Virus record (IMG/VR): IMGVR_UViG_3300037781_000042
Coordinates: 32,001-96,000 of that record
Origin: a virus
Lineage: Duplodnaviria; Caudoviricetes
DNA: 64,000 bases
Reading direction: 5' to 3' (one strand)
The position numbers and the translations under genes were made by a program. The notes beneath the pieces were generated by a model. That model was not told the DNA's origin. It saw only the letters and a list, made by a program, of their open reading frames with translations, and searched no databases. This document shows positions 4,732 to 44,758 of this stretch, piece by piece. Every line of letters begins with the position of its first letter. Positions within the stretch are counted from its first letter, which is position 1.

Positions 4732-5334
4732 TTGAATAAATTATCAAATCCTTTAATTATTACTAAATCTCAGTCCGGAGAAAAAGCTTACGATTTACAT
4801 TCATTATTGTTTAAAGAAAGAAAAATAATGATTAATTCTGATATAGATGAAGATGTATCTCAATCAATAGTATCTCAATTATTACATTTAGATGAAGAAG
4901 ATTCAAATGAAGAAATTATTCTTTTTATAAATTCTCCTGGTGGAAGTGTTACTGACGGTTTAGCAATTTATGATACTATTCAATTTATAGATGCTCCAGT
5001 TACTACAGTATGTGTAGGTCTTGCTGCTTCAATGGCCCAAGTTTTATTATGCGCAGGAGAACCTGGAAGAAGATTTTCTTTTCCTAATTCTAGAATAATG
5101 ATGCATCAGCCTTCAGGTGGAACTTGGGGACAAGGATCGGATATAGAAATTTATCATAATGAGATGGTAAAAATAAAGGATCTACTTTATGGAATAATTC
5201 AAAAACATACTGGAAAATCTTATGAAGAAATTAAAAAACACGCAGATAGAGATTATTGGATGTCTCCTAAAGAAGCTAAAAAATATAATCTAATAGATAA
5301 AATTATTAAATCTAAAAAAGATTTATTTAGCTAA
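4732..5334 (+). CDS. clpP: ATP-dependent Clp protease proteolytic subunit
   Basis: FINSPGGSVTDGLAIYDT; catalytic Ser (AASMA), His (MMHQPSGG) and Asp (DRDYWM); TTG start. Confidence 0.95.
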   Translation: MNKLSNPLIITKSQSGEKAYDLHSLLFKERKIMINSDIDEDVSQSIVSQLLHLDEEDSNEEIILFINSPGGSVTDGLAIYDTIQFIDAPVTTVCVGLAASMAQVLLCAGEPGRRFSFPNSRIMMHQPSGGTWGQGSDIEIYHNEMVKIKDLLYGIIQKHTGKSYEEIKKHADRDYWMSPKEAKKYNLIDKIIKSKKDLFS

Positions 5335-7588: not shown

Positions 7589-10500
7589 GTGAGTAACCAA
7601 AAGAAATATTATTCAGATATAAATCTTCTTAAAAATTATTTAAGAAATGTTAAAATAGATTCAAAAGATAATCCCCAAACTTCAGATGTAGAAGTAAATG
7701 AAGTATTTTTTAAAGATGGAGATGCTTCTAATTTGTGGACTTATAATGGATCAGAAATTGTTAAAATAGGATCTCAAGCAACTGTAAATTCATTTACAAT
7801 TGACGAAGATCTAGATTTAAACGATTTTAAAATAATTAATGTGGCAGAACCAGAAGATCCAAATGATGTAGTTACTTTACAGTATTTCCAAGATTATATT
7901 AATTCTACAGATGCTTTTGATTTAGCAAATTCTACAATAACATATACAGATTCTATTGCTTTAGATTCTGATATTAATCATCTTGATAATATGATGTTAA
8001 TAGATGCTGCTATTGTAGCTTCTATTGAAGCACCTACAAAATTAGAAAATTCTACTTTTTCTGTAAGTGCTGAAACATTTGAAGCAAAGCTTCCTTCAGG
8101 ATTAAATGCCAGTTGGTATACCGAAGATTCTGCCGGAGATACAATAGAAAATTATGTCACAGTTCCAAACATTTCTTTAGATGTAAGTTTTCTTTCTGGA
8201 GTATATTCAGATTCCAATACTTATGGAAACGTTTCTGTTGTATTAGACGGTTCTTTAAATGCCACAATATTAGATGTTGCAACTTTAGAAGATAATAATT
8301 ATTCTTCTGGAAGATTAGATGCAAATGTTCAATTATTATCTAATGATGAATATTCTGAATATTGGAATGAATTATCTACTAAATCTAATTTAACTATAAA
8401 AGATGAAGGTGTAATTAAGTTTCAATTAATCTCAAGTAAAACTGGGGATGGACCAATACAAAAATTGTATTATGATGATGAAACTTCTATCCCATCTTTT
8501 TCAGCTGCTTTAACAGCTACTCCAGATACTGAAGTTTATAAATATTTATCTAATGTTTCTTATTATAAAGTAGGAACTACTATAGATTATGGATATACAG
8601 CAGCTTCTGGTATTTATAATAAATCTTATCATCCTACAGAAGTTTCTAAAGTTTATATTAATTCAAAATCTTTTGATGATATAATTCATAATCCAGTAGG
8701 AACTCCAGCATATAATGATACTTTAGTAGTTTCTGATACTGCGACAATTGATGTAGTAGATACTACAACAGGGTTATTGAAAGGAACCGTTTATGCTAAA
8801 TTACAGAAACCTGATGGCCAAGAAGCAGTAGATTTTGTAGAACTTTCTAAAGGAATAAATACGTATGGAGATGAGGCTACAAATTTAGAAGAATACTTCT
8901 TAGATGAAAGTTATAGATTAGAGCTTGGAGGAGAAGTAGCATGGGATTCTGAAACTTCATTTGATGATGCAGATGGAGGACCAGACGCTCAAGTAAAAAA
9001 TGGATATTTACTATATCCTATAGCAGCAGATTATGGAAATAGTCCTACTGGAAATAAAGAATATAATAGAAGATTTTATCCTGGTGTTCCTGTAAATTCA
9101 GCATATTTAAAATTTGAAGGAATTAATATTACTGATATTTCTCCTTATGGAACAGGATCTTTAAATGTATTAATAGAATTAACTGATCAATCAGTATTTT
9201 ATGATTTAGGAAAATCTACTGGAGGAGGAGATGGTTCTTCAAGAGCAGATTCTATTCCAGGACAAGAACAGATATTAAAAGATAATATTGTTAATTTTAC
9301 TTTACTTACTAATTCTACGGGATTAGAATCTACTGAATCGTATAAATTAATTGTTATCTTTAGAGATAATTCTCATACCCTAACTTCTATAATCCATTAC
9401 GATACTTTCTTTGATGTAAGTTCAGATGAAGATAATGAATTTGGTATTAGAGGACCTCAAGGTAACCAAGGAGCTGCCGGAGCAGATGGGAGTTCCGGAC
9501 CACAAGGAAATGACGCAAATTTAACGGGTGCTACAGGTGCACAAGGTGTACAAGGGAATCAAGGATGGCAAGGTGAGATTGGATTTCAAGGCAACCAAGG
9601 CAACCAAGGCAACCAAGGATTTCAAGGTAACCAAGGATTTCAAGGTAATCAAGGATGGCAAGGTGAAATAGGTCCGACTGGTGTACAAGGTACCCAAGGT
9701 AACCAAGGATGGCAAGGTAACCAAGGTTTAAAAGGTAACCAAGGAGATTTTGGTCCTACTGGCATACAAGGAAACCAGGGTAACCAAGGATGGCAAGGTT
9801 CAATTGGATTCCAAGGTAACCAAGGATGGCAGGGTGAAATAGGTCCTACTGGCGTACAAGGAAACCAGGGTAACCAAGGATGGCAAGGTTCAATTGGATT
9901 CCAAGGTAACCAAGGATGGCAGGGTGAAATAGGTCCTACTGGTGTACAAGGAAACCAAGGAAACCAGGGTAACCAAGGATGGCAAGGAAACCAGGGTAAT
10001 CAAGGTTTAAAAGGAGATACCGGTGACCAAGGTGTACAAGGTAACCAAGGTAACCAAGGATGGCAAGGTTTAAGAGGATTTCAAGGTAATCAAGGATGGC
10101 AAGGTGAAATAGGTCCGACTGGCGATCAAGGAAACCAAGGTAACCAAGGATGGCAAGGTTTAAAAGGAGATACTGGTGATCAAGGAAACCAAGGTAATCA
10201 AGGTTGGCAAGGTAATCAAGGTTTAAGAGGATTTCAAGGTTTAAAAGGAGATACGGGAGATACCGGCAACCAAGGGTTCCAAGGTAACCAAGGATGGCAA
10301 GGTTTAAAAGGAGATACTGGTGATCAAGGGTTCCAAGGAAATACTGGTGATCAGGGCGATCAGGGACCACAAGGTAACCAAGGTAACCAGGGTAACCAAG
10401 GATGGCAAGGTTTAAAAGGAGATACTGGTGATCAAGGTGTACAAGGTAACCAAGGAAATCAGGGTTTAAAAGGAGATACTGGAGATCAAGGGTTCCAGGG

Positions 10501-11419
10501 TAACCAAGGATGGCAAGGTTTAAAAGGAGATACTGGTGATCAAGGGTTCCAGGGTAACCAAGGATGGCAAGGTTTAAAAGGAGATACTGGAGATCAAGGT
10601 GTACAAGGTAATGTAGGTTCAAATGGTGCTGACGGTAATCAGGGTAACCAAGGATGGCAAGGTAATGTAGGTTCAAATGGTGCTGACGGTAATCAGGGTA
10701 ATCAGGGTAATCAGGGTTTAAAAGGAGATACTGGAGATCAAGGGTTCCAAGGAAATACTGGTGATCAGGGCGATCAGGGACCACAAGGTAACCAGGGTAA
10801 CCAGGGTAACCAAGGATACCAGGGAAATCAAGGTATAAGAGGTTTCCAAGGGTTTCAAGGAAACGTAGGCTCAAATGGTGCTAATGGTAATCAGGGTAAC
10901 CAAGGGTTCCAGGGTAACCAAGGATGGCAAGGTTTAAAAGGAGATACTGGAGATCAAGGGTTCCAAGGTAATGTAGGTTCAAATGGTGCTGACGGTAATC
11001 AGGGTAACCAAGGAAACCAGGGTAATGCTGGTACTATAGGGGTTGATGGCAATCAAGGTAATCAGGGTAACCAAGGAAACCAGGGTAATGCTGGTACTAT
11101 AGGGGTTGATGGTAACCAGGGTAACCAAGGATGGCAAGGAAATGAAGGTACATTTGGAGGAACATTAACATCTGATATAACTCCTAATTTAGATAATACT
11201 CATGATTTAGGGTCTGCTAGTTTTAGAATGGCATCTGTCTATACAAACGATTTGTTTACTGGTGATATTCATTTCTTAAATAAATGGAGAGCAATTGAGT
11301 ATGTAAATAATGATCCTGAACAATTAATAGATGGTTTAATATTCGTAGATGCTAATAATATAGAAATATTTAGAATAGGTCAAGATGGAATATATTTTAA
11401 AGGAAATAAAATAAATTAA
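7589..11419 (+). CDS. collagen-like virion fibre protein 1
   Basis: About 190 uninterrupted-looking Gly-X-Y triplets (GNQ/GWQ/GFQ, ~9443-11160); N-terminal KIINVAEP..PNDVVT stalk-like motif; C-terminal P..DNTHDLGS..R...VY fibre motif. Confidence 0.85.
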   Translation: MSNQKKYYSDINLLKNYLRNVKIDSKDNPQTSDVEVNEVFFKDGDASNLWTYNGSEIVKIGSQATVNSFTIDEDLDLNDFKIINVAEPEDPNDVVTLQYFQDYINSTDAFDLANSTITYTDSIALDSDINHLDNMMLIDAAIVASIEAPTKLENSTFSVSAETFEAKLPSGLNASWYTEDSAGDTIENYVTVPNISLDVSFLSGVYSDSNTYGNVSVVLDGSLNATILDVATLEDNNYSSGRLDANVQLLSNDEYSEYWNELSTKSNLTIKDEGVIKFQLISSKTGDGPIQKLYYDDETSIPSFSAALTATPDTEVYKYLSNVSYYKVGTTIDYGYTAASGIYNKSYHPTEVSKVYINSKSFDDIIHNPVGTPAYNDTLVVSDTATIDVVDTTTGLLKGTVYAKLQKPDGQEAVDFVELSKGINTYGDEATNLEEYFLDESYRLELGGEVAWDSETSFDDADGGPDAQVKNGYLLYPIAADYGNSPTGNKEYNRRFYPGVPVNSAYLKFEGINITDISPYGTGSLNVLIELTDQSVFYDLGKSTGGGDGSSRADSIPGQEQILKDNIVNFTLLTNSTGLESTESYKLIVIFRDNSHTLTSIIHYDTFFDVSSDEDNEFGIRGPQGNQGAAGADGSSGPQGNDANLTGATGAQGVQGNQGWQGEIGFQGNQGNQGNQGFQGNQGFQGNQGWQGEIGPTGVQGTQGNQGWQGNQGLKGNQGDFGPTGIQGNQGNQGWQGSIGFQGNQGWQGEIGPTGVQGNQGNQGWQGSIGFQGNQGWQGEIGPTGVQGNQGNQGNQGWQGNQGNQGLKGDTGDQGVQGNQGNQGWQGLRGFQGNQGWQGEIGPTGDQGNQGNQGWQGLKGDTGDQGNQGNQGWQGNQGLRGFQGLKGDTGDTGNQGFQGNQGWQGLKGDTGDQGFQGNTGDQGDQGPQGNQGNQGNQGWQGLKGDTGDQGVQGNQGNQGLKGDTGDQGFQGNQGWQGLKGDTGDQGFQGNQGWQGLKGDTGDQGVQGNVGSNGADGNQGNQGWQGNVGSNGADGNQGNQGNQGLKGDTGDQGFQGNTGDQGDQGPQGNQGNQGNQGYQGNQGIRGFQGFQGNVGSNGANGNQGNQGFQGNQGWQGLKGDTGDQGFQGNVGSNGADGNQGNQGNQGNAGTIGVDGNQGNQGNQGNQGNAGTIGVDGNQGNQGWQGNEGTFGGTLTSDITPNLDNTHDLGSASFRMASVYTNDLFTGDIHFLNKWRAIEYVNNDPEQLIDGLIFVDANNIEIFRIGQDGIYFKGNKIN

Positions 11420-21284: not shown

Positions 21285-24200
21285 ATGGCAATTTTTAATA
21301 AAGCAGATCAGCTTTATAAGCATCTATTAAATAAAAAATTAACTTCTTCTAATAAAGATTATTATGAAGAGGTTACTGATTCTCGAATAGGGAATATTGC
21401 TGCTCAATATATTTGGGCAGATAATATTTCTGAAACTCCTCCTGTTTCTACAACAGCAACAATTCAAGTTTATACAGATAAAATTCTAAAAGAAGATCCT
21501 ACTGTAGATGATTCTAGAGTATGGAGTGCTGTTACAGATCATTCTATCGATCATGATTTTTCTGCTCGTTCAGATGGATCAAATCCTAGATTAGCTAATT
21601 GGATTCCTCCTCAATTTGGAGAAGATTATAGAATAGTAATTAAAGATTCATTAGGAAATGAACTTTCAAGATATACTGATTGGCTATTTGATTACGAAAC
21701 AGGTACATTAGTTTTTGCAGATACTCCTCCAGTAAATAGACCTTTTTCTGTTACAGGATATAGATACATAGGAAATTTAGGTATTACTTCTGCTACAGGA
21801 TTTACTGGCGCTCAAGGTGCTCAGGGACCACAAGGAAATCAAGGTAATCAAGGATGGCAAGGGATTCCTGGTTCTGCTACAGCAACAGGTGCTCAAGGAA
21901 ATCAAGGAAACCAGGGAGATTTTGGACCACAGGGATGGCAAGGTAACCAAGGTAACCAAGGAAACCAGGGTAACCAAGGATGGCAAGGTAATGCAGGTAC
22001 TATAGGTGCTGATGGGGTGCAAGGAAACCAGGGTAACCAAGGATGGCAAGGATTTGGTGGGGTTCCTGGTCCTACAGGTGCTCAAGGATGGCAGGGTAAT
22101 CAGGGTAACCAGGGTTGGCAAGGTTCTAAAGGAGATCAAGGTATTAGAGGTTTTCAAGGTAACCAAGGTAACCAAGGATGGCAAGGAAACCAAGGTAACC
22201 AGGGTTGGCAAGGGATTCCTGGTTCTGCTACAGCAACAGGTGCTCAAGGTAATGAAGGTCCTCAAGGTGGAATAGGTCCTCAAGGTAATCAAGGTAATCA
22301 AGGATGGCAGGGTAATCAAGGTAATCAGGGTTGGCAAGGTTCTGGTGTACAAGGCAATCAAGGTAATCAAGGTAATCAAGGATGGCAGGGTTCTGGCGTT
22401 CAAGGATCTCAAGGCAATCAAGGATGGCAGGGTAATCAAGGTAATCAAGGATGGCAAGGTTCTGGTGTACAAGGCAATCAAGGATGGCAAGGATTTAAAG
22501 GAGATAAAGGTAATCAAGGAAATAAAGGTAACCAAGGAGATTTTGGTCCTACTGGTGTACAAGGTAACCAGGGTAACCAAGGATGGCAAGGTTCTATCGG
22601 ATTTCAAGGCAACCAAGGATGGCAAGGTGAAAAAGGAGACACTGGAGATACTGGAGATCAAGGTGTGCAAGGTAACCAGGGTAACCAAGGATGGCAAGGT
22701 TCTGGTGTACAAGGATCTCAGGGTTTAAAAGGTAATCAAGGTAATCAAGGATGGCAAGGTTCTAAAGGAGATATTGGTTTACAGGGTTGGCAAGGTTCTA
22801 AAGGAGATACTGGAGATACTGGAGATCAAGGTGTACAAGGTAACCAGGGTAACCAGGGTAGAAGAGGATTCCAAGGTTTAGTTGGGAATCAGGGTAATCA
22901 AGGATGGCAAGGTAATCAAGGATGGCAAGGTGAAATAGGTCCGACTGGTTCTACGGGGGTACAAGGTAACCAGGGTAACCAGGGTAACCAAGGTTTAAAA
23001 GGAAACCAGGGTAACCAAGGATGGCAAGGTGAAATAGGTCCAACGGGTCCAACTGGAGATCAAGGTGTACAAGGGAATAAAGGGAATCAAGGGAATCAAG
23101 GTAGAAGAGGATTTCAAGGTTTAGTTGGGAATCAGGGTAACCAAGGATGGCAGGGTAATCAAGGTAACCAAGGTAACCAGGGTTGGCAAGGTTTAAAAGG
23201 AGATACTGGTGTACAAGGTAATCAAGGTAACCAAGGATGGCAAGGTTTTAAAGGAGATACTGGTGTACAAGGTACCCAAGGTAATCAAGGATGGCAAGGT
23301 GAAATAGGTCCGACTGGTTCTACGGGGGTACAAGGGTCTCAAGGTTTAAGAGGATATCAGGGTAACCAAGGATGGCAAGGTAATGCAGGAACAGATGGTA
23401 ACCAAGGTAACCAAGGAAATCAAGGTAACCAGGGTAATCAAGGATGGCAAGGTTTAATTGGTTTACAGGGTGTACAAGGAAATCAGGGTAACCAAGGTAA
23501 CCAAGGTAATGTTGGATTCCAAGGTAATCAAGGTAATCAAGGAAACCAAGGTAATCAAGGACCTTTAACTTTAGCAGGAGACAATTGGGCATATAACACT
23601 AAAACTATTTATGGTTATGGAGCACCATGTACTTATGAACCGCCATTATTAAAATTTGAAGGTTCGTTAGTAGGAGCTGAAGTTTCTTTAAAGGATGAAC
23701 ATTTTGTAGATACTGATGTTACTTTATCAGGCTCGTTGACTAAAAAACATTTTTATTACGATTTAAATTTTAAATGGAACGGAGATTCTGATAATCATTC
23801 AAACGCTTCAGATGTAGATGAAATTTACATCGGAGTATATTTTTACAACAATGATGATTCTGTATATGAATTAGTAGATTCTTATAGAGCTTCAGCAGAT
23901 GAAAATTTAGATTATTCTTTACAAACTAGAGCAGCTTTTTATCCTACAGATGATACAAAAACTTCTAGATTTAAGATAATTCTTTCTACTAGTTCAACAT
24001 TTACTACAACAAGTACTATTACACCAAATGCGAATTTAGATAAGTTTTTATTTGAATTTAATGTGTATGAAGTTGCTATTGGATCATATAGAGGATTTTC
24101 TAGTGGAGGACCTGGATTCCAAAAATATCAAGCAATTGTTGCTTCTGGTATAAATGTTCCTGAGTCAAACACTGGAGATACTTATGTTGACATGTCAGAC

Positions 24201-26813
24201 TGTTCTATTTATAAAAAAGGAAATACTTGTAAAGAAAATTCTAATGGATTTTTACTTTATAATGATAGTACTTCTACTGATGTAGAACAATATTATAGAG
24301 GATTCCAATCTTCTATTGAATTGAATACAGGAAGTTTAAAAAATGTTATAGATGGAAATACTTTAGATTATAGTCAATCTGATGATGGTTTAGATTATAC
24401 AAATAATATAATTTTAACAGAAACTTTAAGTATTGTAAACCATAAAGAAACTTCTGAAAATGATTTATTTTTATACGGGTACAATTTATTTGAAAAATTT
24501 GATGATCCTACAAATTCTGATTATCAAACAATATTAGAAAATTTAAGAGATTCTAATAATGAATTATACGTTTATTTAGATTTCTTATTATATGAAGATA
24601 CAGATAGAGTTGGAAATACTTTAACTATAGATACTCAAGAAGGGTCTAAGATTCCGCATGAACCTCTTACAGAAGATTTTGATTATGGAGTATGGTTAGT
24701 AGATAAAGATTCATATCAATTTAAAAATATGAAAAAATGGAATCGTATAGATTTAAATTCATATTTAACAGCCGAAACTTTATCAAGTACAAGTAAGACA
24801 TATAAAATTTATAATGGATCTACTAGTTATTCTACAAATACTGTTACAGATTGTTATAAAGTAACTTCTGTAATGTTGAAATATAATGCATTTACGGATG
24901 GAGGAGAACCTTTAGGAGTAGATGGTTATTGGGATGTAGTAGAAATTAATAAAGAATTAAAAGATATAAATATTTCAGCAGATTCTTATTATCCTATTAA
25001 ACCTACTAGAGATGTTCTTATAGATTCTGTATCTGCTACAGAAGAAGAATTAAATAAATTGTATACTTGGGGGTCTCCTGGAGTGTCTTTAGATACTTCT
25101 ACATTTACTGTAGAATGGGATTTCTCTAAAGATTTTATTGGATCTAATTATAACGAATTTATTTATAAAGCTAAATATTATAATTGGTCAAATTCTTCTT
25201 TTGATGAATTTACTACAGGAGGCGGATGGTCAGGTACAATAAATCGAGAAATGTATAATCCTAATACAGAATCTTGGGTAGATGTAAGTTCTGATGAATT
25301 TGATATTGATACCAATAAAGTAGATTGTGACACTGATACCTATACAAAATTAAGATATACGTGTTCAAATGGTAATGGTGCAGGAACTATTACTTTAAAT
25401 ACAATGGCCGTTGTAGTAGATTTAGGATGTATGGCAGACTGTTGTTGGGAAAAAATTGGAACACAGGATTGTGGAAGTTGTGGATGCAATGACTCCACAG
25501 ATTGTGATGAGGTTACTACAGTAGATTACGCTGGATATTTAGATGATACTTATTATAATACTCATCCTAAACCGCTTTCATTAAAATCTGTGTCTTGTGA
25601 AGATGCTCCATCTTGTTTTGAAGTTCCTTTCAGCTTTGTTGAAAATACATATTCATCTGATATTAATTATCACAACAGTGTTAGAAATTCTAAATATGGA
25701 TGGGACAAATATGATAATGACCAGATAGTAGAAATAGGATATAATGATGGATTAGGTGATTTTTGGATAACATATAAACTTAAAAAAGGGGTAACTATAT
25801 GTACTGATGGTCTTCATACAAAAACTATAGATTATGGAGATACTGTTTATACTTACGTTTCAGAAGATGGAACAACTTGGTATGATTGGGCAACCCCATC
25901 AAATAGAACTGATTTTGAAGATTGTAATGAAAAGAAAGTAAGATACATTAAGATAGAATCTGAAGGTACTTTTGATTTAGAATACATTTATTTAAATGCT
26001 AAAAATTGTGGTGATGGGTGTTGTTATTCTTCAGCTAGACCAGATAATTATCATTATGAAGATACTTACAGTGCAGTTCAAGTTTATTATATTGGGGATT
26101 CCGTAAACTATAATGATAACATTTATATTAATCAATCAGATGAACCTTTAATCGGTGTTACTCCGGGAACAGGAGATTGGTCTTATTTTGCAAATTCAGA
26201 TCCTACAGGACTAGTTGGGCCTCAAGGTAACCAAGGAGTAAATGGTTCTAATGGTAACCAGGGTAACCAAGGGAATCAGGGTTCTGGAGGAGATACTGGT
26301 AATCAAGGTAACCAAGGTAACCAGGGATTGGTTGGTGCATCTGGTGGAGGATGGGATGAAGAGGAAATAGTCACTTCTCAAGAAACTTTTACAACAGCAA
26401 CGTTAAGTACATCATCTGCGTTAGATATATCTTCCGGTTTACCTGCATCTGGAGTAGGCGAAACTTTATATGAGATAGAATTTAAATTGGCATTAGATGT
26501 TCAAGGCGCTTTAACCGGATATAAAATTGAAATAGAAGGAACACAAAATCATAATAGCGATATAACTTATTTATGTTCTGAAGGAGGTTCATTGTCAGGT
26601 AATTATGTTATCAATAGTATGACGTCTGATATATTTACAGCTACTGTACCTAACTTTACAGGAAAGTTCTTTGTTGAAGGTTCAGGTGTAATAGAAACTG
26701 CTGCTTTAGCATCTGATGTTAGAGTTCAAATAGCATGTGACGATGATACAGGTCCAAATCAAATTCAATTGAATAATGGAAGTTATTTAAGATTAAAGAA
26801 TATTTCACCTTAA
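21285..26813 (+). CDS. collagen-like virion fibre protein 2, multidomain
   Basis: About 195 Gly-X-Y triplets (~21800-23565), a second short collagen tract near 26215-26345, Cys-rich linkers, and a CBM5/12-like Y..GD.V.YN..IY....P....W motif. Confidence 0.85.
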   Translation: MAIFNKADQLYKHLLNKKLTSSNKDYYEEVTDSRIGNIAAQYIWADNISETPPVSTTATIQVYTDKILKEDPTVDDSRVWSAVTDHSIDHDFSARSDGSNPRLANWIPPQFGEDYRIVIKDSLGNELSRYTDWLFDYETGTLVFADTPPVNRPFSVTGYRYIGNLGITSATGFTGAQGAQGPQGNQGNQGWQGIPGSATATGAQGNQGNQGDFGPQGWQGNQGNQGNQGNQGWQGNAGTIGADGVQGNQGNQGWQGFGGVPGPTGAQGWQGNQGNQGWQGSKGDQGIRGFQGNQGNQGWQGNQGNQGWQGIPGSATATGAQGNEGPQGGIGPQGNQGNQGWQGNQGNQGWQGSGVQGNQGNQGNQGWQGSGVQGSQGNQGWQGNQGNQGWQGSGVQGNQGWQGFKGDKGNQGNKGNQGDFGPTGVQGNQGNQGWQGSIGFQGNQGWQGEKGDTGDTGDQGVQGNQGNQGWQGSGVQGSQGLKGNQGNQGWQGSKGDIGLQGWQGSKGDTGDTGDQGVQGNQGNQGRRGFQGLVGNQGNQGWQGNQGWQGEIGPTGSTGVQGNQGNQGNQGLKGNQGNQGWQGEIGPTGPTGDQGVQGNKGNQGNQGRRGFQGLVGNQGNQGWQGNQGNQGNQGWQGLKGDTGVQGNQGNQGWQGFKGDTGVQGTQGNQGWQGEIGPTGSTGVQGSQGLRGYQGNQGWQGNAGTDGNQGNQGNQGNQGNQGWQGLIGLQGVQGNQGNQGNQGNVGFQGNQGNQGNQGNQGPLTLAGDNWAYNTKTIYGYGAPCTYEPPLLKFEGSLVGAEVSLKDEHFVDTDVTLSGSLTKKHFYYDLNFKWNGDSDNHSNASDVDEIYIGVYFYNNDDSVYELVDSYRASADENLDYSLQTRAAFYPTDDTKTSRFKIILSTSSTFTTTSTITPNANLDKFLFEFNVYEVAIGSYRGFSSGGPGFQKYQAIVASGINVPESNTGDTYVDMSDCSIYKKGNTCKENSNGFLLYNDSTSTDVEQYYRGFQSSIELNTGSLKNVIDGNTLDYSQSDDGLDYTNNIILTETLSIVNHKETSENDLFLYGYNLFEKFDDPTNSDYQTILENLRDSNNELYVYLDFLLYEDTDRVGNTLTIDTQEGSKIPHEPLTEDFDYGVWLVDKDSYQFKNMKKWNRIDLNSYLTAETLSSTSKTYKIYNGSTSYSTNTVTDCYKVTSVMLKYNAFTDGGEPLGVDGYWDVVEINKELKDINISADSYYPIKPTRDVLIDSVSATEEELNKLYTWGSPGVSLDTSTFTVEWDFSKDFIGSNYNEFIYKAKYYNWSNSSFDEFTTGGGWSGTINREMYNPNTESWVDVSSDEFDIDTNKVDCDTDTYTKLRYTCSNGNGAGTITLNTMAVVVDLGCMADCCWEKIGTQDCGSCGCNDSTDCDEVTTVDYAGYLDDTYYNTHPKPLSLKSVSCEDAPSCFEVPFSFVENTYSSDINYHNSVRNSKYGWDKYDNDQIVEIGYNDGLGDFWITYKLKKGVTICTDGLHTKTIDYGDTVYTYVSEDGTTWYDWATPSNRTDFEDCNEKKVRYIKIESEGTFDLEYIYLNAKNCGDGCCYSSARPDNYHYEDTYSAVQVYYIGDSVNYNDNIYINQSDEPLIGVTPGTGDWSYFANSDPTGLVGPQGNQGVNGSNGNQGNQGNQGSGGDTGNQGNQGNQGLVGASGGGWDEEEIVTSQETFTTATLSTSSALDISSGLPASGVGETLYEIEFKLALDVQGALTGYKIEIEGTQNHNSDITYLCSEGGSLSGNYVINSMTSDIFTATVPNFTGKFFVEGSGVIETAALASDVRVQIACDDDTGPNQIQLNNGSYLRLKNISP

Positions 26814-37951: not shown

Positions 37952-38314
37952 TTATATTTGGGTAATATTTAATCTATAATCTTTTCCTTGTCCTGCATCA
38001 ACTGATGCATCAATTCCATAAGGAAAACACATATTTAATAAAAATCTTTGTGCGTAAATTAAAGAAAATGTTTCATCTTCATTATCATACCATCCCCAAT
38101 AATCAGGTCCACCTTCATTAATGTTTTCAACGTTTTGTTCTTTTGCTATTGATACTTCTACTTTAATAATATCATTTACTTCTTTTCCATATAACGATAC
38201 TGTAGATTCATGAATTCCAAAATGATCAAAATATTTTCCATATTCAGGGTGTGTTGAAATAACACAATTTACAATATATGTTTTTTGAAAATCTTCTTCT
38301 TTAATTTCTTTCAT
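37952..38314 (-). CDS. hypothetical protein
   Basis: YWGW......F..IY...L.MCFPYG motif typical of phage early proteins. Confidence 0.65.
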   Translation of the reverse strand: MKEIKEEDFQKTYIVNCVISTHPEYGKYFDHFGIHESTVSLYGKEVNDIIKVEVSIAKEQNVENINEGGPDYWGWYDNEDETFSLIYAQRFLLNMCFPYGIDASVDAGQGKDYRLNITQI

Positions 38315-38335
38315 GATTACTTCCTTTTTAATATT

Positions 38336-38467
38336 TGAGGCGAGGGCAGGACTCGAACCTGCAATTGGCTGTACCTATATAACCATAATCTATGTTAGTG
38401 GATTTCGAACCAAACTCTCATACAACCTTTCAGATAATAGCGTTTACCAATTTCGCCACCTCGTCTC
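38336..38467 (-). ncRNA. tRNA-like RNA (~130 nt) with canonical D and T arms, degenerate GAA anticodon arm and ~60-nt variable insert
   Basis: GACGAGG-TG-GCGAAATTGGTAAACGC ... GCAGG-TTCGAGT-CCTGC-CCTCGCC; no encoded CCA. Confidence 0.7.
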
Positions 38468-38470
38468 AAT

Positions 38471-38617
38471 TTAAATTATTACTCCTTTAGAATCCAATTC
38501 CTGTTGTAATTTCATAATTTTATTCGTTAATTGTTGTTTAGTCATTTCATGCCAAGGTCCATCTGGAATTAACCTATAACACAATACACCATCAACTATT
38601 TGTTCTATGTAATACAT
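38471..38617 (-). CDS. small hypothetical protein (48 aa, not in ORF track)
   Basis: MYYIEQIVDGVLCYRLIPDGPWHEMTKQQLTNKI...; AGGA site. Confidence 0.6.
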   Translation of the reverse strand: MYYIEQIVDGVLCYRLIPDGPWHEMTKQQLTNKIMKLQQELDSKGVII

Positions 38618-39004: not shown

Positions 39005-42000
39005 ATGCAAAAGAATTTATATTTCACATCACCAAATCAGCCTCACTTCATAGAAATTAATAATAATTTTTCTGAAAAGAAAGAGTATAGAATTTATTTT
39101 GAAGGAGAGACTTTAAATTTATTTTTATTAGAAGGAGTATCTATAACTAATTATGATACTTTTGATAATGGATATGTGTTAACAGTAGATGAAGGAGAAT
39201 CTAGGTACTTAGAAATTTATCCAAAATGTGGAGATGTTTCTATTGATGCTTATGTAGATTGTATAATAGAATCTGCAGATCAAGATTTTACAGATATTAA
39301 TAGATTGAATTTAGCTTTAAGAAAAGAGAGATTTGGAAAGAATGTTCCTTTATATTCTACATTTGAAAAGAAATTTAAAGAATTTGAAAAAGAAGAATAT
39401 GAAACTTATGCTTTACAAAATATAAATCCTTTACTTTCTGGAAATGTTAAATTAAGAATAGATTCTAAAAATAAATTATATTTTACTTTATTTGATGAAG
39501 TAACAGAATCTAATAACGATAAATTATATTCAAGAGTAGTAAAAAACGGATCTGATTATTTAAATGAACTAACAAAATTCTTTAAAGATTTAGAAAGAAA
39601 GACTGATAGTTTTTATGAAAATATAGTAGTTGAAAATTACAATTCAAGAGACGGAGCATCTTTAAAATCTCAAATTAGAGATGATATTTATTCTGCAGGT
39701 GCATATAATATTCCTTCAGAAACTCATAAAGAAAAATTTGCAATTTTTGCTCCTTTATATCTTGAAAATAAAATACCTTCTAAGTTTGTAATTTTTAAAA
39801 GAGAAAAAGTAAATGATTTAAAAAATTCTGAATTATTTAAAGATTTAACAATTGTAAAAAGTTTTGATTTATCTAAAAATTCAGAGTTAGGAAAGTTTAT
39901 AGATAGAACAAAAGAAACTATAAATTTTGAAAAACCTCACGTAAAAAGTGTAATTAATGATAACTCTGTTCTTTTAGAAATAACAGGAATGGATCCAGAA
40001 GCTTCTTCAATTGCTACAGTATATGAAGATATAACTGATTATGCTTTTAAAGAATCTACTATTTTAGATTTTGAATCTTATGTTACTGATACTTATAAAA
40101 GAAGAAAACTTGTTTCTCATAGAATATTAAATTTAGAATTTTTATTTGATGATGATTTAGAAGAAAACGAAATGTATTCGTATTTTGGAATGTATGTAGA
40201 TGATTTAGACATCTCTAAATACGAATTAGATTTAAATCATTATGGAAAAGATGTTTATAATAAATGTACTTTAGGAATTGGAAGTTCTGTAGATTCATTA
40301 AAAGTTTCTACTCAAATACCAGATATTTCAAAGTATATTAATACTAATGACAGAATATTCTATTTAAAAGATGCTTCAAACAATTTTCATAATTTAAAAT
40401 CTACTTCTGAATATGAATTTAAATTAAAAAATTCTACAAGCATTTGTGACTTTGCTAAAAATGTAGATGAACAGGTTGTTATTAAAGATTCAGATATTAT
40501 TAAAGATGCTAAACCTTATGTAAACGTTTCGTTTGATGATAACATTTATTCAAATACACAGTTAGTAATAACTCAAAATACGAATAAATATGAAATAGAT
40601 TTTATAGAAGATGTAGTAACAGTAGATTATTATGAACATTCTCAAATAGAAAATATTTTTCCTATTACTTTAATAGATGATAATACTATTCAAATAGAAG
40701 AATATGTTTATATTCCTGATTCTGAAATAGTAACTTTAATAGATCCAAGTTCTGAAATTTCAGTAGAATCTTCTTATTCTATTAATAGTGGAAGTTATAC
40801 ACAAATTGTATTTTCAGATGCTATCGATTTAAGTTCAATTACACACATTAAAATAATAGAAAAACCTAAACTGAAAGCAGAAGTTACTTTAGGTGTTAAT
40901 TTAGAAGAAACATTAGCTAAATTAGTAGAAAAAGTTTCTTTATTAGATAATTTTCCATTTGAAATAGTTCAAGAAGCAAATGAAATTTTTATATGTTCTA
41001 CTAATAGTTTAAAGTTTAATGTTACTTTAGATACTACTAATTCTTCTACTGATTTATCTAAGATAAAAAGATTCAGTAATGATTTAACGTTAACCGCTTC
41101 TACTGTAGGAGGAGTAACAGTAACTTCTAATGTATCATCTTTTAATTCTGTAAATCTAACAAATGATTATCTTTATCCTATAGATAGTTATTACTCAGAA
41201 TATTTTAATGAAGGAGATTATTTATATGACATTGGTTCAGTTCATTCAGAATCTTTACCAATTGATGAAACTTCTTATACGATAAGATATATGAATGGGT
41301 TAGAAGTAATAAAACTTCCTAAAGAAAAAACTATTAAAAAGATTTATAAACCAAGTTCTTTATGTTTAGGACTTTTTAGTTTTTATGATGTTAGAAGATT
41401 TGATACTCAAATGGTAACAAATGATTTTAATTTCATTAAAGCTGAATATCAGAAACTTTATAAGAAATTTGCTCCTTCTGAAAAATTAGTTCCTAGAATG
41501 ATTTATAAATTGAAAAATGTAGGGAGTATTCCTATTACGGTTTCAGTTAGATATGGAATAGAAGATTCTTGGAAACATACAGAAGTAACTAGATTAACTG
41601 TAGGAGCAAATTCTACTAGACAGTTTTCTACCTTTCTTTCGGATTATAGTTTAACCGAATATAATGAAGATATTGAGTTTAGATATTTTTTAGTAGATGA
41701 TAATGAATTAAGTGGAAACATCTATGCTTATAATTTAAATCTATTTGAAGATCCTGATTTATTAAACTTTGATCCTGAATTTCCAAATACTTCTTATGAT
41801 AGTAAAAAGAAACAAAACGAAATAGATATTCAAAAACAAAATGAAAATCCTGATTTCGTTTACTATCAAGATGCTAGAAGTGAATATTTTAGATTAGAAG
41901 AATATTCAAACGTAGATTCTACAATAGAAGATATTATATCAAATAGAAATGTAAAATGGACAGATTATAAATTCAAAGATTCTAAAGCTCAACCTCATAG

Positions 42001-44758
42001 ATTAAACTTTAGTCCTGCTTTAGGAAAAACCGGATACATGTCTACATTTACAAATTTTGAAAGTTTACCAGAACTTCATCCTCATGAATGGTTTATGATG
42101 GAAGAATTTCCAAGTCACTTATCAGTTTACGAAGGATCAGAAGGAAATTATTTATTTTCAAGAGTTTCTAAGAGTTTACTTTTAGATACTAACTATGACT
42201 ATTTTACAGAATATTTTTCAAATGGTCATTTAGGAGTAGATGAAATAAGTGGAAAAGATTTAAAAATTTCTAGAAAAGATAATTATGGAATTTTTTATAG
42301 ATCTTCTTTAGATGAATATGAAGTTCCTTATAAAGGGGTAAAATATAGATTTAAGTCTGAAACTGATTTAAGTGGATATAAATTTGCAATTGTTCATAGT
42401 ACACGTCCTGATTTAGAATCTAATACACAATCTATAATTGATCATTGTGAGGTACCGGATGTTGGATATGATTGTAAAGATTTAGGAATTTTACCTAAAT
42501 TACAGTATGCAATTGATGATTTAGTATTAGGAGATCAAACTGTAAATATTTCAGTTTCTGTTATAAATTCTGGAACTTCTGTTACTATTCCAGAATTAAC
42601 AAGTACTACAGTAGAAAATTCTGGTTCTTTATTTACTTTAGGACAATTTGGTACTGAATTATTAAATGCTTTAAATAAATGGAAAGCAGCATTTGAAAAT
42701 ATTTATAATACTTCAAATGGATACGGAGGAAACTTAACTATTGCATTTAGTACAAAAACTGAAAATGGAAATTATCCTGTAGGAGAATTTTATATTACAG
42801 ACGATCAGAAAACTACAAGTAAAATAGGAGACATTAGAATTGGAATGGCTAAAATTCCAGATACGGATGTTGCTAAAACTTTATACATTTCTCAATCTGA
42901 TTTTAATTCAAAATTTGATTATGTTACTCCTTCAATAATCATTAATTCAAATGCTATTTTAAGAAAAAATGATGACGTTGCCCCTGAGGCATTTTCATTA
43001 TCTTATATTATGGCACACGAATTGGGACATGCTTTTGGTTTAGGTCACGTAGACAGAGAAGCTTCTTTAATGAAACCTACAATTCAATTTAGTTATGATT
43101 TAGGAAACATAGAAAATGAAGATGATTGTATTATAAGTATTTATGGAGAACCTTTACCTGTAGAAGATAATAGTGTTGATTTCGATTGTTCTTTAAGTAG
43201 ATTTAGAAAGAAAGATTCTTTTGAATTTATAGTAAATGAAACATTTAAAACAATAACACTTAAAATCTGTGTAGACGTTCCTAATTATATCAATTTAGAT
43301 TCTAAAAAATCTTTTGTAGATATGTATGTTTCTAATTCATTAAAAAGAATAGCTTCTTATGACGGTGTTCATACTTTAGAAGGATTAGATTTAAGTATTC
43401 CAATTATAGATCTTTCTATAAAAAATGTTGTTTTAGAAAATGATAATGTTTATGCTTTTGCTAAACAGCATTTAGATTTATTTACAAATGGAGAAAATTC
43501 AGAATATTCTTCTTATAGAATAAGAGATGTTAAAAATAATGAAAATGATTTTACAATAGACTATTTAGCACTTACATATACAAATGTTAATTATACATTA
43601 AAGAAATCTTTTGATAAAACAGGTTCTGTAAATAAAGCATTATTGACTAGAATTAAAGATGGATACGATAGTTCTTTAAATATGAAAATACCTTTATTGA
43701 CTAAAGAGTATTTTGAAGATTCTTATTTTTATAGAATATTAGGAGGAGATTCTATATCTAAAGCAAACTATAAATTAACTTTAGATTATTTAAGTGCAAT
43801 AAGTGAAGAAATTCCAATTGAAGGTTCTGATATAACTTTTGATTTTGATATTCTTCCACTTAAAAACGTAAGACTTGAAAATATTAAAATACCAGTATTA
43901 AAGAATAAAGAAGATGGACCGCATTTTAAATTAGAAGAAGCACAAGTAAATACTTCATTACTTAGAGCAGAAGGTGAATACGATCCGATGACAGATAAAT
44001 TAACTTATTTTTCTTTAAGAGAAGATTATAATTTATCTACATTATTTCAAATAGATTTTTATAAATTGAATACTAAGTTTTTATGGAACCATTTAAACTT
44101 TGCTAAGCATGAAGAGTTAATTAAAAAGATGGGACCTTCTGATCAATTGAAACAAAATATAAAAGAAAATGAATTTTCAATGTATCAAAAAACTCAGAAG
44201 TTTGCAAATAACTTAAAAACTTTATATTCTTCTGTTTTAGATCAAGATTCATATTCTTATTATTCAAATACAAATGAACAAAAGCTTTCGGGATTCTTTG
44301 ATCCATTATTAAATAGAAACTATTTTAATTCTCAACTTATTAATAGTTCTACAGAAATTGATTTAAATATTCTAAGTAAACACGTAACGTTTAATCAAGT
44401 TAAAGAACAATTAACAGTAAACGTAAACGTTAAAGAAGCGTTAAGAGATGAATTACTTTCTTTAATACTTCCTTATTATGAAAGGATATATCCTCTTTCA
44501 ATAGAAGCAAAAATAGAAGATAGTTTAAAAAGATTAATTTTTAATGACTTAGAGAATCTTTATTCAGTCGATAGTATTAACATATTAAGTAAAGATTCTA
44601 TAGAAACTACTTATGTTAATATTTTTGAAAATGATATGATAAGAGATTCTAATTTTAACGTTGAAGATACAAGTAAGGAAATTATTGAATTAAAAAGACC
44701 TTTAGAAAAAGGAAGAAAACTTAAATTTAATATTAAAATTAGTTTTAAGTATATTTAA
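39005..44758 (+). CDS. giant virion-associated protein with internal zinc metallopeptidase (matrixin/M10-like) domain
   Basis: HELGHAFGLGH (43016-43048) plus SLMKP Met-turn; lies in the baseplate gene cluster. Confidence 0.75.
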   Translation: MQKNLYFTSPNQPHFIEINNNFSEKKEYRIYFEGETLNLFLLEGVSITNYDTFDNGYVLTVDEGESRYLEIYPKCGDVSIDAYVDCIIESADQDFTDINRLNLALRKERFGKNVPLYSTFEKKFKEFEKEEYETYALQNINPLLSGNVKLRIDSKNKLYFTLFDEVTESNNDKLYSRVVKNGSDYLNELTKFFKDLERKTDSFYENIVVENYNSRDGASLKSQIRDDIYSAGAYNIPSETHKEKFAIFAPLYLENKIPSKFVIFKREKVNDLKNSELFKDLTIVKSFDLSKNSELGKFIDRTKETINFEKPHVKSVINDNSVLLEITGMDPEASSIATVYEDITDYAFKESTILDFESYVTDTYKRRKLVSHRILNLEFLFDDDLEENEMYSYFGMYVDDLDISKYELDLNHYGKDVYNKCTLGIGSSVDSLKVSTQIPDISKYINTNDRIFYLKDASNNFHNLKSTSEYEFKLKNSTSICDFAKNVDEQVVIKDSDIIKDAKPYVNVSFDDNIYSNTQLVITQNTNKYEIDFIEDVVTVDYYEHSQIENIFPITLIDDNTIQIEEYVYIPDSEIVTLIDPSSEISVESSYSINSGSYTQIVFSDAIDLSSITHIKIIEKPKLKAEVTLGVNLEETLAKLVEKVSLLDNFPFEIVQEANEIFICSTNSLKFNVTLDTTNSSTDLSKIKRFSNDLTLTASTVGGVTVTSNVSSFNSVNLTNDYLYPIDSYYSEYFNEGDYLYDIGSVHSESLPIDETSYTIRYMNGLEVIKLPKEKTIKKIYKPSSLCLGLFSFYDVRRFDTQMVTNDFNFIKAEYQKLYKKFAPSEKLVPRMIYKLKNVGSIPITVSVRYGIEDSWKHTEVTRLTVGANSTRQFSTFLSDYSLTEYNEDIEFRYFLVDDNELSGNIYAYNLNLFEDPDLLNFDPEFPNTSYDSKKKQNEIDIQKQNENPDFVYYQDARSEYFRLEEYSNVDSTIEDIISNRNVKWTDYKFKDSKAQPHRLNFSPALGKTGYMSTFTNFESLPELHPHEWFMMEEFPSHLSVYEGSEGNYLFSRVSKSLLLDTNYDYFTEYFSNGHLGVDEISGKDLKISRKDNYGIFYRSSLDEYEVPYKGVKYRFKSETDLSGYKFAIVHSTRPDLESNTQSIIDHCEVPDVGYDCKDLGILPKLQYAIDDLVLGDQTVNISVSVINSGTSVTIPELTSTTVENSGSLFTLGQFGTELLNALNKWKAAFENIYNTSNGYGGNLTIAFSTKTENGNYPVGEFYITDDQKTTSKIGDIRIGMAKIPDTDVAKTLYISQSDFNSKFDYVTPSIIINSNAILRKNDDVAPEAFSLSYIMAHELGHAFGLGHVDREASLMKPTIQFSYDLGNIENEDDCIISIYGEPLPVEDNSVDFDCSLSRFRKKDSFEFIVNETFKTITLKICVDVPNYINLDSKKSFVDMYVSNSLKRIASYDGVHTLEGLDLSIPIIDLSIKNVVLENDNVYAFAKQHLDLFTNGENSEYSSYRIRDVKNNENDFTIDYLALTYTNVNYTLKKSFDKTGSVNKALLTRIKDGYDSSLNMKIPLLTKEYFEDSYFYRILGGDSISKANYKLTLDYLSAISEEIPIEGSDITFDFDILPLKNVRLENIKIPVLKNKEDGPHFKLEEAQVNTSLLRAEGEYDPMTDKLTYFSLREDYNLSTLFQIDFYKLNTKFLWNHLNFAKHEELIKKMGPSDQLKQNIKENEFSMYQKTQKFANNLKTLYSSVLDQDSYSYYSNTNEQKLSGFFDPLLNRNYFNSQLINSSTEIDLNILSKHVTFNQVKEQLTVNVNVKEALRDELLSLILPYYERIYPLSIEAKIEDSLKRLIFNDLENLYSVDSINILSKDSIETTYVNIFENDMIRDSNFNVEDTSKEIIELKRPLEKGRKLKFNIKISFKYI
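44511..44758 (+). repeat. diverged direct repeat copy A (functional 3' end of 1917-aa gene)
   Basis: 248 nt aligning to 46158-46402. Confidence 0.95.

Follow-up and report, generated by a model that had tools for sequence, protein, structure and literature searches.

The analysed window, a 64,000-nt stretch of DNA, is part of a 211,581-bp IMG/VR virus record of about 27–29% G+C, for which CheckV estimates a completeness of 82%. The record encodes a T4 gp21-like prohead protease, which indicates that the virus is a tailed phage. Analysis of the minus strand revealed a tRNA-like element of 128 bases at window positions 38338–38465, which is both the only tRNA-type gene and the only match to the Rfam tRNA family (RF00005) in the 211-kb record. 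The element fills the gap between two small minus-strand ORFs, inside a run of small ORFs on the same strand. The stop codon of the upstream 48-aa ORF (38471–38617, minus strand) ends five bases before the acceptor stem, or three bases before the 9-bp stem obtained when the acceptor is extended, while the downstream 120-aa ORF (37952–38326, minus strand) has a Shine–Dalgarno-like AAGGAAG (38320–38326) that lies 11 bases after U73. No promoter or terminator of its own was found above background beside the element. A search for relatives of the upstream 48-aa ORF returned none, and in other phages no tRNA-like gene adjoins the homologues of the downstream ORF. Among cultured phages, no similar phage was found and the element itself gives T-arm-sized matches only.

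Several other features of the record were recorded. A 53-aa ORF on the opposite strand (38313–38474, plus strand) spans the whole element and is almost certainly spurious. A 1917-aa ORF with a matrixin-like metalloprotease domain (39005–44758, plus strand) starts about 120 bases from the divergent operon that bears the element. Two very large plus-strand ORFs of 1276 and 1842 aa (7589–11419 and 21285–26813) are full of collagen triple-helix repeats and have a G+C content above that of the rest of the window. Outside the window, the phage encodes a CCA-adding enzyme in a 435-aa frame (PF01743, 96.8 bits); one small ORF separates it from a downstream RNA ligase that has an N-terminal OB fold (PF21189 and PF09414) and is followed by an RNase H (G000:C1:8777–9157, locus L182, and L181:1015–2016). 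Despite these genes for CCA addition and RNA ligation, the sole tRNA-type gene in the 211 kb is an element without CCA.

Architecture of the tRNA-like element

The initial annotation had proposed Rfam and ARAGORN as checks, of which the former recognized the element: RF00005 matches it end to end with 35.2 bits, above the gathering score of 29 (E value 0.0012 for the 64 kb), whereas ARAGORN with default settings finds no tRNA in the window. Nor does ARAGORN report a tmRNA, which would combine a tRNA-Ala-like domain with a tag reading frame; the element is just 128 nt long. In the RF00005 alignment about 62 bases are inserted and all five anticodon-stem pairs are flagged as non-standard by cmscan. 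The element carries about 54 extra bases, and the distance from D arm to T arm is 77 bases. Searches of Rfam at E values up to 10 gave no match to intron, self-cleaving ribozyme, T-box, YrlA or other tRNA-mimic families. The RNA as a whole is not more stable than shuffled sequences (z = −0.6), so thermodynamics alone gives the fold of the insert no support; the homologues described below do support it.

Read in its own orientation, the element opens with the acceptor strand GACGAGG (38459–38465), which pairs with 38339–38345, and it closes with the 3′ strand CCUCGCC (38345–38339) and discriminator U73 (together 38338–38345). The 7-bp acceptor contains an A2·C71 mismatch, can be extended through pairing of G−2/A−1 with U73/C74, and is followed by TCAAAT, so that CCA is not encoded. 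U8, G9 and a leucine-type D arm come next (GCGAAAUUGGUAAACGC, 38440–38458), with a 3-bp stem, A14, G18 and G19. The D arm itself (GCGAAATTGGTAAACGC, 38456–38440) was verified by a sequence check and is nearly the same as those of T4 tRNA-Leu and of the canonical tRNA-Leu in a 388-kb relative, G002. The T arm, GCAGG-UUCGAGU-CCUGC (38346–38362), was identified both by sequence check and by RF00005. The frame therefore unites a 7-bp acceptor, U8, A14, G18G19 and the G53-UUCGA-C61 signature, which means that the canonical elbow nucleotides are present. All of this agrees with the initial annotation, in which the D arm and T arm (GCAGG-TTCGAGT-CCTGC) were called canonical and the acceptor was said to have an A-C mismatch, a possible two-pair extension and no CCA.

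The D arm is followed by a 12-nt linker, UAUUAUCUGAAA (38428–38439), which holds C32-U33-GAA-A37 and for which no conserved pairing partner was found. CTGAAAG in this region places GAA at 38431–38429, in the anticodon register that had been assigned to it, and the flanking anticodon stem is as poor as originally described (ATTAT/GTTGT, with two A-U pairs, two G·U pairs and one U·U). Helix P starts with the 5′ strand GGUUG, which extends to GGUUGUAU in this phage only (38420–38427) and pairs with 38367–38371; at the DNA level, GGTTGTA (38427–38421) is complementary to TACAGCC (38373–38367). The first junction strand, J1 (UAUGAGA, 38416–38422; AAUGCGA in homologues), contains a UGNGA pentamer.

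Hairpin H2 (GUU-UGG-UUCGAAAU-CCA-cu-AAC, 38394–38415) has a T-loop-like loop, and its inner part reads TGG-TTCGAAAT-CCA at 38412–38399. Junction strand J2 (AUAG, 38390–38393) leads to the hairpin H3 region (AUUA-UGGUU-AUAU, 38377–38389), which has a conserved UGG(U) loop, and then to junction strand J3 (AGGUA) with the 3′ strand of helix P (CAGCC; together 38367–38376). A tail, AAUU (38363–38366), precedes the T stem. Its last U is invariant in four copies of the element and is a candidate for U48 as partner of A15, a putative tertiary pair by analogy with tRNAs in general.

Comparison with canonical bacterial and phage tRNA-Leu (class II, RF00005) brings out both likeness and difference. The 7-bp acceptor, U8, the leucine-type D arm and the UUCGA T arm are shared, and the site next to the T stem, which the long variable arm takes up in tRNA-Leu, is likewise occupied by a helix. 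In contrast to tRNA-Leu, the element has twelve unpaired bases in place of a conserved anticodon stem-loop, the helix beside its T arm opens into a three-way junction, and its discriminator is neither A73 nor conserved, with CCA not encoded. A73 is the discriminator expected for a leucine or phenylalanine tRNA.

Conservation in other viral contigs

Exact pattern scans of other viral contigs revealed three true homologues in unrelated contigs, L052 (4852–4972, minus strand), L053 (4903–5023, plus strand) and L055 (3566–3688, plus strand). Further pattern scans gave matches in L056, L057, L178–L180 and the genome_contigs set, all of which were dismissed as chance matches. A covariance model, R1, that was built from the four copies themselves scores these four members at 125–145 bits and the best other Leu-frame gene at 59. 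The flanks of the four copies share no protein, no informative domain and no conserved partner gene. No CCA-adding enzyme or RNA ligase was seen in the contigs of L052, L053 and L055, which are just 12–71% complete. In L055, inspection by eye shows a terminator-like hairpin and U-run after the gene, which is not wedged between ORFs.

Covariation across related phages, which had been suggested as a check, is observed. In the four copies 94.8% of cells pair, compared with 84% in shuffles, and compensatory changes occur in 9 pairs, compared with 3.5 in shuffles. Most of these fall in the acceptor and T stems, where three acceptor pairs and four of the five T-stem pairs have changed on both sides, and H3 contributes one pair (C-G to U-A). 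These patterns show structural selection on the frame in all four phages.

Two features proposed in the initial annotation, the additional T-loop-like hairpin and the long-range GGTTGTA/TACAGCC helix, are real and conserved. After the inner stem and 8-nt loop of this phage's copy had been realigned by hand, the UUCGA of the H2 loop is invariant on differing stems (GUAAC/GUUAC in L052 and L053, GUUAGU/GCUAAC in L055). Helix P follows the consensus GGYUG/CAGCC and is GGCUG/CAGCC in the homologues, a one-sided change from U·G to C-G; all of its cells pair, and CAGCC is identical at 5/5 positions among homologues. H3 forms 4 bp in the homologues (ACCU[UGGU]AGGU) and is weak in this phage, where just two outer pairs hold in the same columns. 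The four sequences amount in effect to two lineages, this phage and the L052/L053/L055 group, so the support for P, H2 and H3 is suggestive and not statistical.

The unpaired parts of the insert are conserved better than the helices of the frame. The linker UAUUAUCUGAAA is identical at 12/12 positions in L052, L053 and L055, and J1, J2 and J3 (consensus AUGMGA, RUAG and AGGWA) are identical at 5/7, 3–4/4 and 4/5 positions, compared with 8–9/14 for the acceptor and 4–8/10 for the T stem. The D arm matches at 16–18 of 18–19 positions. Candidate antisense targets of the linker in the genome of the phage itself did not exceed the control. The proposed anticodon stem is not kept, as AUUAU, which faces GUUGU in this phage, faces GCUGA in all three homologues. 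The discriminator differs in every copy (U in this phage, C in L052, A in L053 and G in L055), which indicates that there is no conserved aminoacylation identity, and pairing between bases −1 and 73 is possible in three of these copies.

A probable non-decoding RNA and competing explanations

We put at about even the chances that the element is a non-decoding tRNA-shaped RNA that is cut from the operon transcript and carries a conserved insert that binds a partner. The frame would consist of the acceptor, D arm and T arm of a leucine-type tRNA, in which the anticodon and variable region have apparently been replaced by a conserved 70–77-nt domain. This domain is predicted to comprise the 12-nt linker, the 5-bp helix P and a three-way junction with two hairpins whose loops are UUCGA (T-loop-like) and UGGU. 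Since a conserved folded insert takes the place of the codon-reading arm, the element is most likely not a working tRNA. The four copies represent a new small RNA family that Rfam lacks, of a kind that is known though poorly described.

A pathway is proposed where the RNA is transcribed as part of the minus-strand operon and its intact tRNA top half leads to excision by host RNase P and 3′-processing enzymes. The cuts would fall immediately behind the stop codon of the upstream ORF and immediately ahead of the ribosome-binding site of the downstream one. CCA could then be added, for which the phage has its own enzyme. The tRNA frame would give the RNA stability, and the conserved single-stranded motifs and loops of the insert may serve to bind one particular protein or RNA of the tRNA-handling machinery as partner, so that the RNA acts as a mimic or adaptor rather than a decoder. 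The presence of a CCA-adding enzyme and a nearby RNA ligase fits a processed tRNA look-alike, although it is not proof of one.

One elaboration of the non-decoding RNA, to which we would give only a slim chance, is that the insert itself builds a further tRNA elbow in miniature, or else a module on which an elbow docks. The invariant UUCGA loop of H2 would kiss the GG of the H3 loop, much as T and D loops do. A double T-loop module with the pattern AGNNA...UGNNA docks tRNA elbows in RNase P, the ribosomal L1 stalk and T-box leaders (PMC3664808). Around helix P, the conserved pentamers UGAAA, UGMGA and AGGWA conform to this pattern, although such pentamers are frequent by chance. If this were true, the RNA could be a two-headed tRNA mimic that bridges or blocks the tRNA-handling machinery during infection, and it might be the first representative of a large class of phage RNAs, as yet undescribed, that are built on a tRNA-Leu frame.

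The initial annotation had offered both a tRNA mimic and a spliced or processed tRNA as explanations. The frame covariation, the loss of the anticodon stem and the variable discriminator support the mimic, and the spliced tRNA is the weaker reading, which we regard as unlikely but retain as an alternative. It supposes an intron-bearing class II tRNA(GAA) with a 34–40-nt intron at the canonical 37/38 site, removed by proteins such as a nuclease together with the phage RNA ligase. The intron would run from the base of helix P to ...RUAGAY, leaving a product about 88 nt long that has a CUGAAAN loop and a variable region of 18–19 nt. Such an excision is homologous in all four copies, in that AUUAU and CUGAAA are invariant and the 3′ stem WUGGU falls within the invariant UGGU; AUUAU-CUGAAA and UGGU can be read as a conserved anticodon stem-loop split at 37/38, and the ligase is encoded by the phage. 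There is also a strong tRNA match (55.6 bits) in relative G002 with about 59 nt inside a good anticodon stem. The spliced tRNA would join the unexplained short tRNA introns first reported in Lak megaphages, where tRNA genes contain ‘enigmatic’ short introns, one of them predicted to be itself tRNA-like (Devoto et al. 2019, PMC6784885). Both are cases of over-long phage tRNA-type genes with inserts far too short for group I introns, and the tRNA-like Lak intron echoes the T-loop-like hairpin of the element. In Lak, however, intron-less copies fix the excision points and a normal tRNA remains, whereas for the element the pattern scans gave no intron-less copy, and no excision appears to leave a sound cloverleaf in every homologue.

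The pairing that splicing would create is very weak. The spliced anticodon stem in this phage would be A-U, U·G, U·G, A-U and U-A, with a U·U in the other three copies and no compensatory change. Enumeration of excisions with five pairs required gave a solution in this phage's copy only (AUUAU/AUGGU) and none in any homologue; the homologous excision in L052, L053 and L055 yields AUUAU/UUGGU, with two A-U pairs, two U·G pairs and one U·U. From the four sequences, no single excision appears to yield a sound cloverleaf in all of them. The conserved CAGCC would be left without a partner in the mature RNA, the discriminator is not conserved, and a Leu-type body would carry an anticodon that reads Phe codons. 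Enzymes of tRNA splicing also seem to be lacking, as genes for tRNA-splicing endonuclease (PF01974) and RtcB are absent from the record, and inspection by eye showed no bulge-helix-bulge, that is, no 4-bp helix with flanking 3-nt bulges at the candidate sites for archaeal-type splicing. Other splicing or cleavage models were set aside. ARAGORN with introns allowed proposes Phe(GAA) or Ile(GAU) with a 37-nt intron in this phage and Pro(UGG) with a 39-nt intron in L052 and L053; this solution was rejected because the homologues retain neither the 3′ stem AUUAU nor the variable arm on which it depends. A group I intron, with a self-splicing core of roughly 200 nt or more (P1–P9), compares with only about 54 extra bases here. 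A hammerhead-like reading of CUGA..GAG, a helix and GAAA misfits the core, as judged by eye.

Three further explanations were considered. The element could be a pure processing signal, in which the fold serves RNase P and 3′ nuclease cutting between two ORFs and the excised RNA has no task; plant mitochondrial t-elements reportedly act as such signals in transcripts. Its location would suit this role, with a stop codon five bases upstream and, on the same strand, the ribosome-binding site of the next ORF 11 bases downstream, as would the absence of an anticodon arm, of CCA and of a conserved discriminator. A cut signal needs just the acceptor/T-arm stack, however, which leaves unexplained why the 12 unpaired linker bases, three junction strands and two hairpin loops persist among phages in which the acceptor and T stems have drifted, and the L055 gene is followed by a terminator-like hairpin and U-run instead of lying between ORFs; we consider this explanation distinctly unlikely. 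Somewhat less credible again is a decoy that would offer a tRNA body, with perhaps the Phe-like CUGAAA, and so soak up a host tRNA-targeting defence enzyme, for instance an anticodon nuclease or some other effector that cleaves tRNA. In its favour, the top half of the tRNA is intact, the phage has tRNA-repair-type genes (the CCA-adding enzyme and RNA ligase), and CUGAAA resembles the anticodon loop of tRNA-Phe. Anticodon nucleases read an anticodon stem-loop, however, and CUGAAA is not presented as an anticodon loop because no conserved stem holds it. No defence or anti-defence gene is linked to the element and we know of no anticodon nuclease specific for tRNA-Phe; the anticodon-nuclease form of the decoy is rather weak. 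Least probable is a decaying pseudo-tRNA, a former tRNA-Leu gene disrupted by an insertion of junk. The A2·C71 mismatch, U73, the missing CCA, the weak H3 of this phage's copy and folding no better than shuffles all point that way, but this explanation is disfavoured by the retention of both frame and insert in four copies from different phages, where the linker is invariant and the acceptor and T stems have changed in a compensatory way, and by the exact fit of the element in a tight intergenic gap.

Among phage RNAs, the initial annotation had compared the element with the stable RNAs of T4, which is a fair analogy. T4 rnaC (species 1, annotated at 139 nt) and rnaD (species 2, 119 nt) are likewise phage-encoded, of similar size and of unknown function, and rnaC ends in a T arm and acceptor-like pairing, as the element does. 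The analogy does not extend to sequence, as no similarity is shared, and neither T4 RNA matches RF00005, the best match being to tRNA-Sec with 17.5 bits, well below the cut-off. Moreover, rnaC and rnaD lie inside the T4 tRNA cluster, whereas the element stands alone among ORFs. Bacterial Y RNAs of the YrlA type (RF02553), which are partnered by Ro60 and also occur in phages (Chen et al. 2014, PMC4201824), likewise combine a tRNA-like module with a second functional module. YrlA ends in a Ro-binding stem, with the tRNA module permuted, and is linked to a Ro60 gene, whereas the element ends in an acceptor stem. The element does not match RF02553, and no TROVE/Ro60 gene was found in the record.

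The tRNA genes of phages are commonly explained as aids to codon usage or as replacements for tRNAs cut by host nucleases. A non-decoding RNA of the kind favoured here would represent another use of the tRNA shape, in which the frame recognized by processing enzymes is kept and the decoding arm is swapped for a conserved module.

Leu-type frames with other inserts

Long inserts of unrelated sequence within Leu-type frames are common in phage metagenomes. When metagenome contigs were scanned for Leu-type D arms with a T arm at a distance of 64–94 bases, 25 loci were obtained, corresponding to about 20 distinct Leu-frame genes with 63–90-nt inserts of unrelated sequence. Most of these genes have A73 and a perfect acceptor, unlike the four-member family. 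They occur in phage-like settings, and several contigs contain more than one. In our literature search, no paper was found that describes Leu-frame phage RNAs with unrelated long inserts. Together with the four-member family, these genes could point to natural phage “tRNA scaffolds” that carry varied RNA modules. In annotation, such genes are missed by default ARAGORN, or else called tRNAs or intron-containing tRNAs with arbitrary anticodons. A T-loop-like hairpin was also considered as a general feature of the class and rejected, as it is present in 5 of 27 inserts, three of them from the four-member family, compared with 1.1 in shuffles.

Other over-long tRNA-type genes were observed in the same material. 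Contig L053 contains, 79 bases downstream of the homologue, a second tRNA-type gene of 122 nt (5102–5223, plus strand; 49.5 bits) whose D arm is of class I and whose insert includes an additional, perfect T arm, GACGG-TTCGAGT-CCGTT. The 388-kb relative G002 has two such genes, at L016:1501–1634 and L023:1501–1619 (both minus strand). One is the 134-nt tRNA with the 55.6-bit match, in which the roughly 59 bases lie inside the anticodon stem CCTGT...ACAGG of an Asp-like body; the other, of 119 nt, has a Leu-type frame in which a hairpin of about 51 nt forms the anticodon arm. Metagenome contigs L043, L048 and L030 each have several consecutive Leu-frame genes of 120–137 nt. L029 and L043 have homologous inserts, in which an inner helix covaries (GCCC/GGGU versus CUCC/GGAG) and GAAAAAGAGUA...UAUGAUGG is conserved. 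Finally, the only tRNA-type match in a 161-kb relative, G001, is a 90-nt Leu-like frame with no obvious anticodon arm (L012:1501–1590, plus strand), which contains CUGAUGAUAUGCUCAG.
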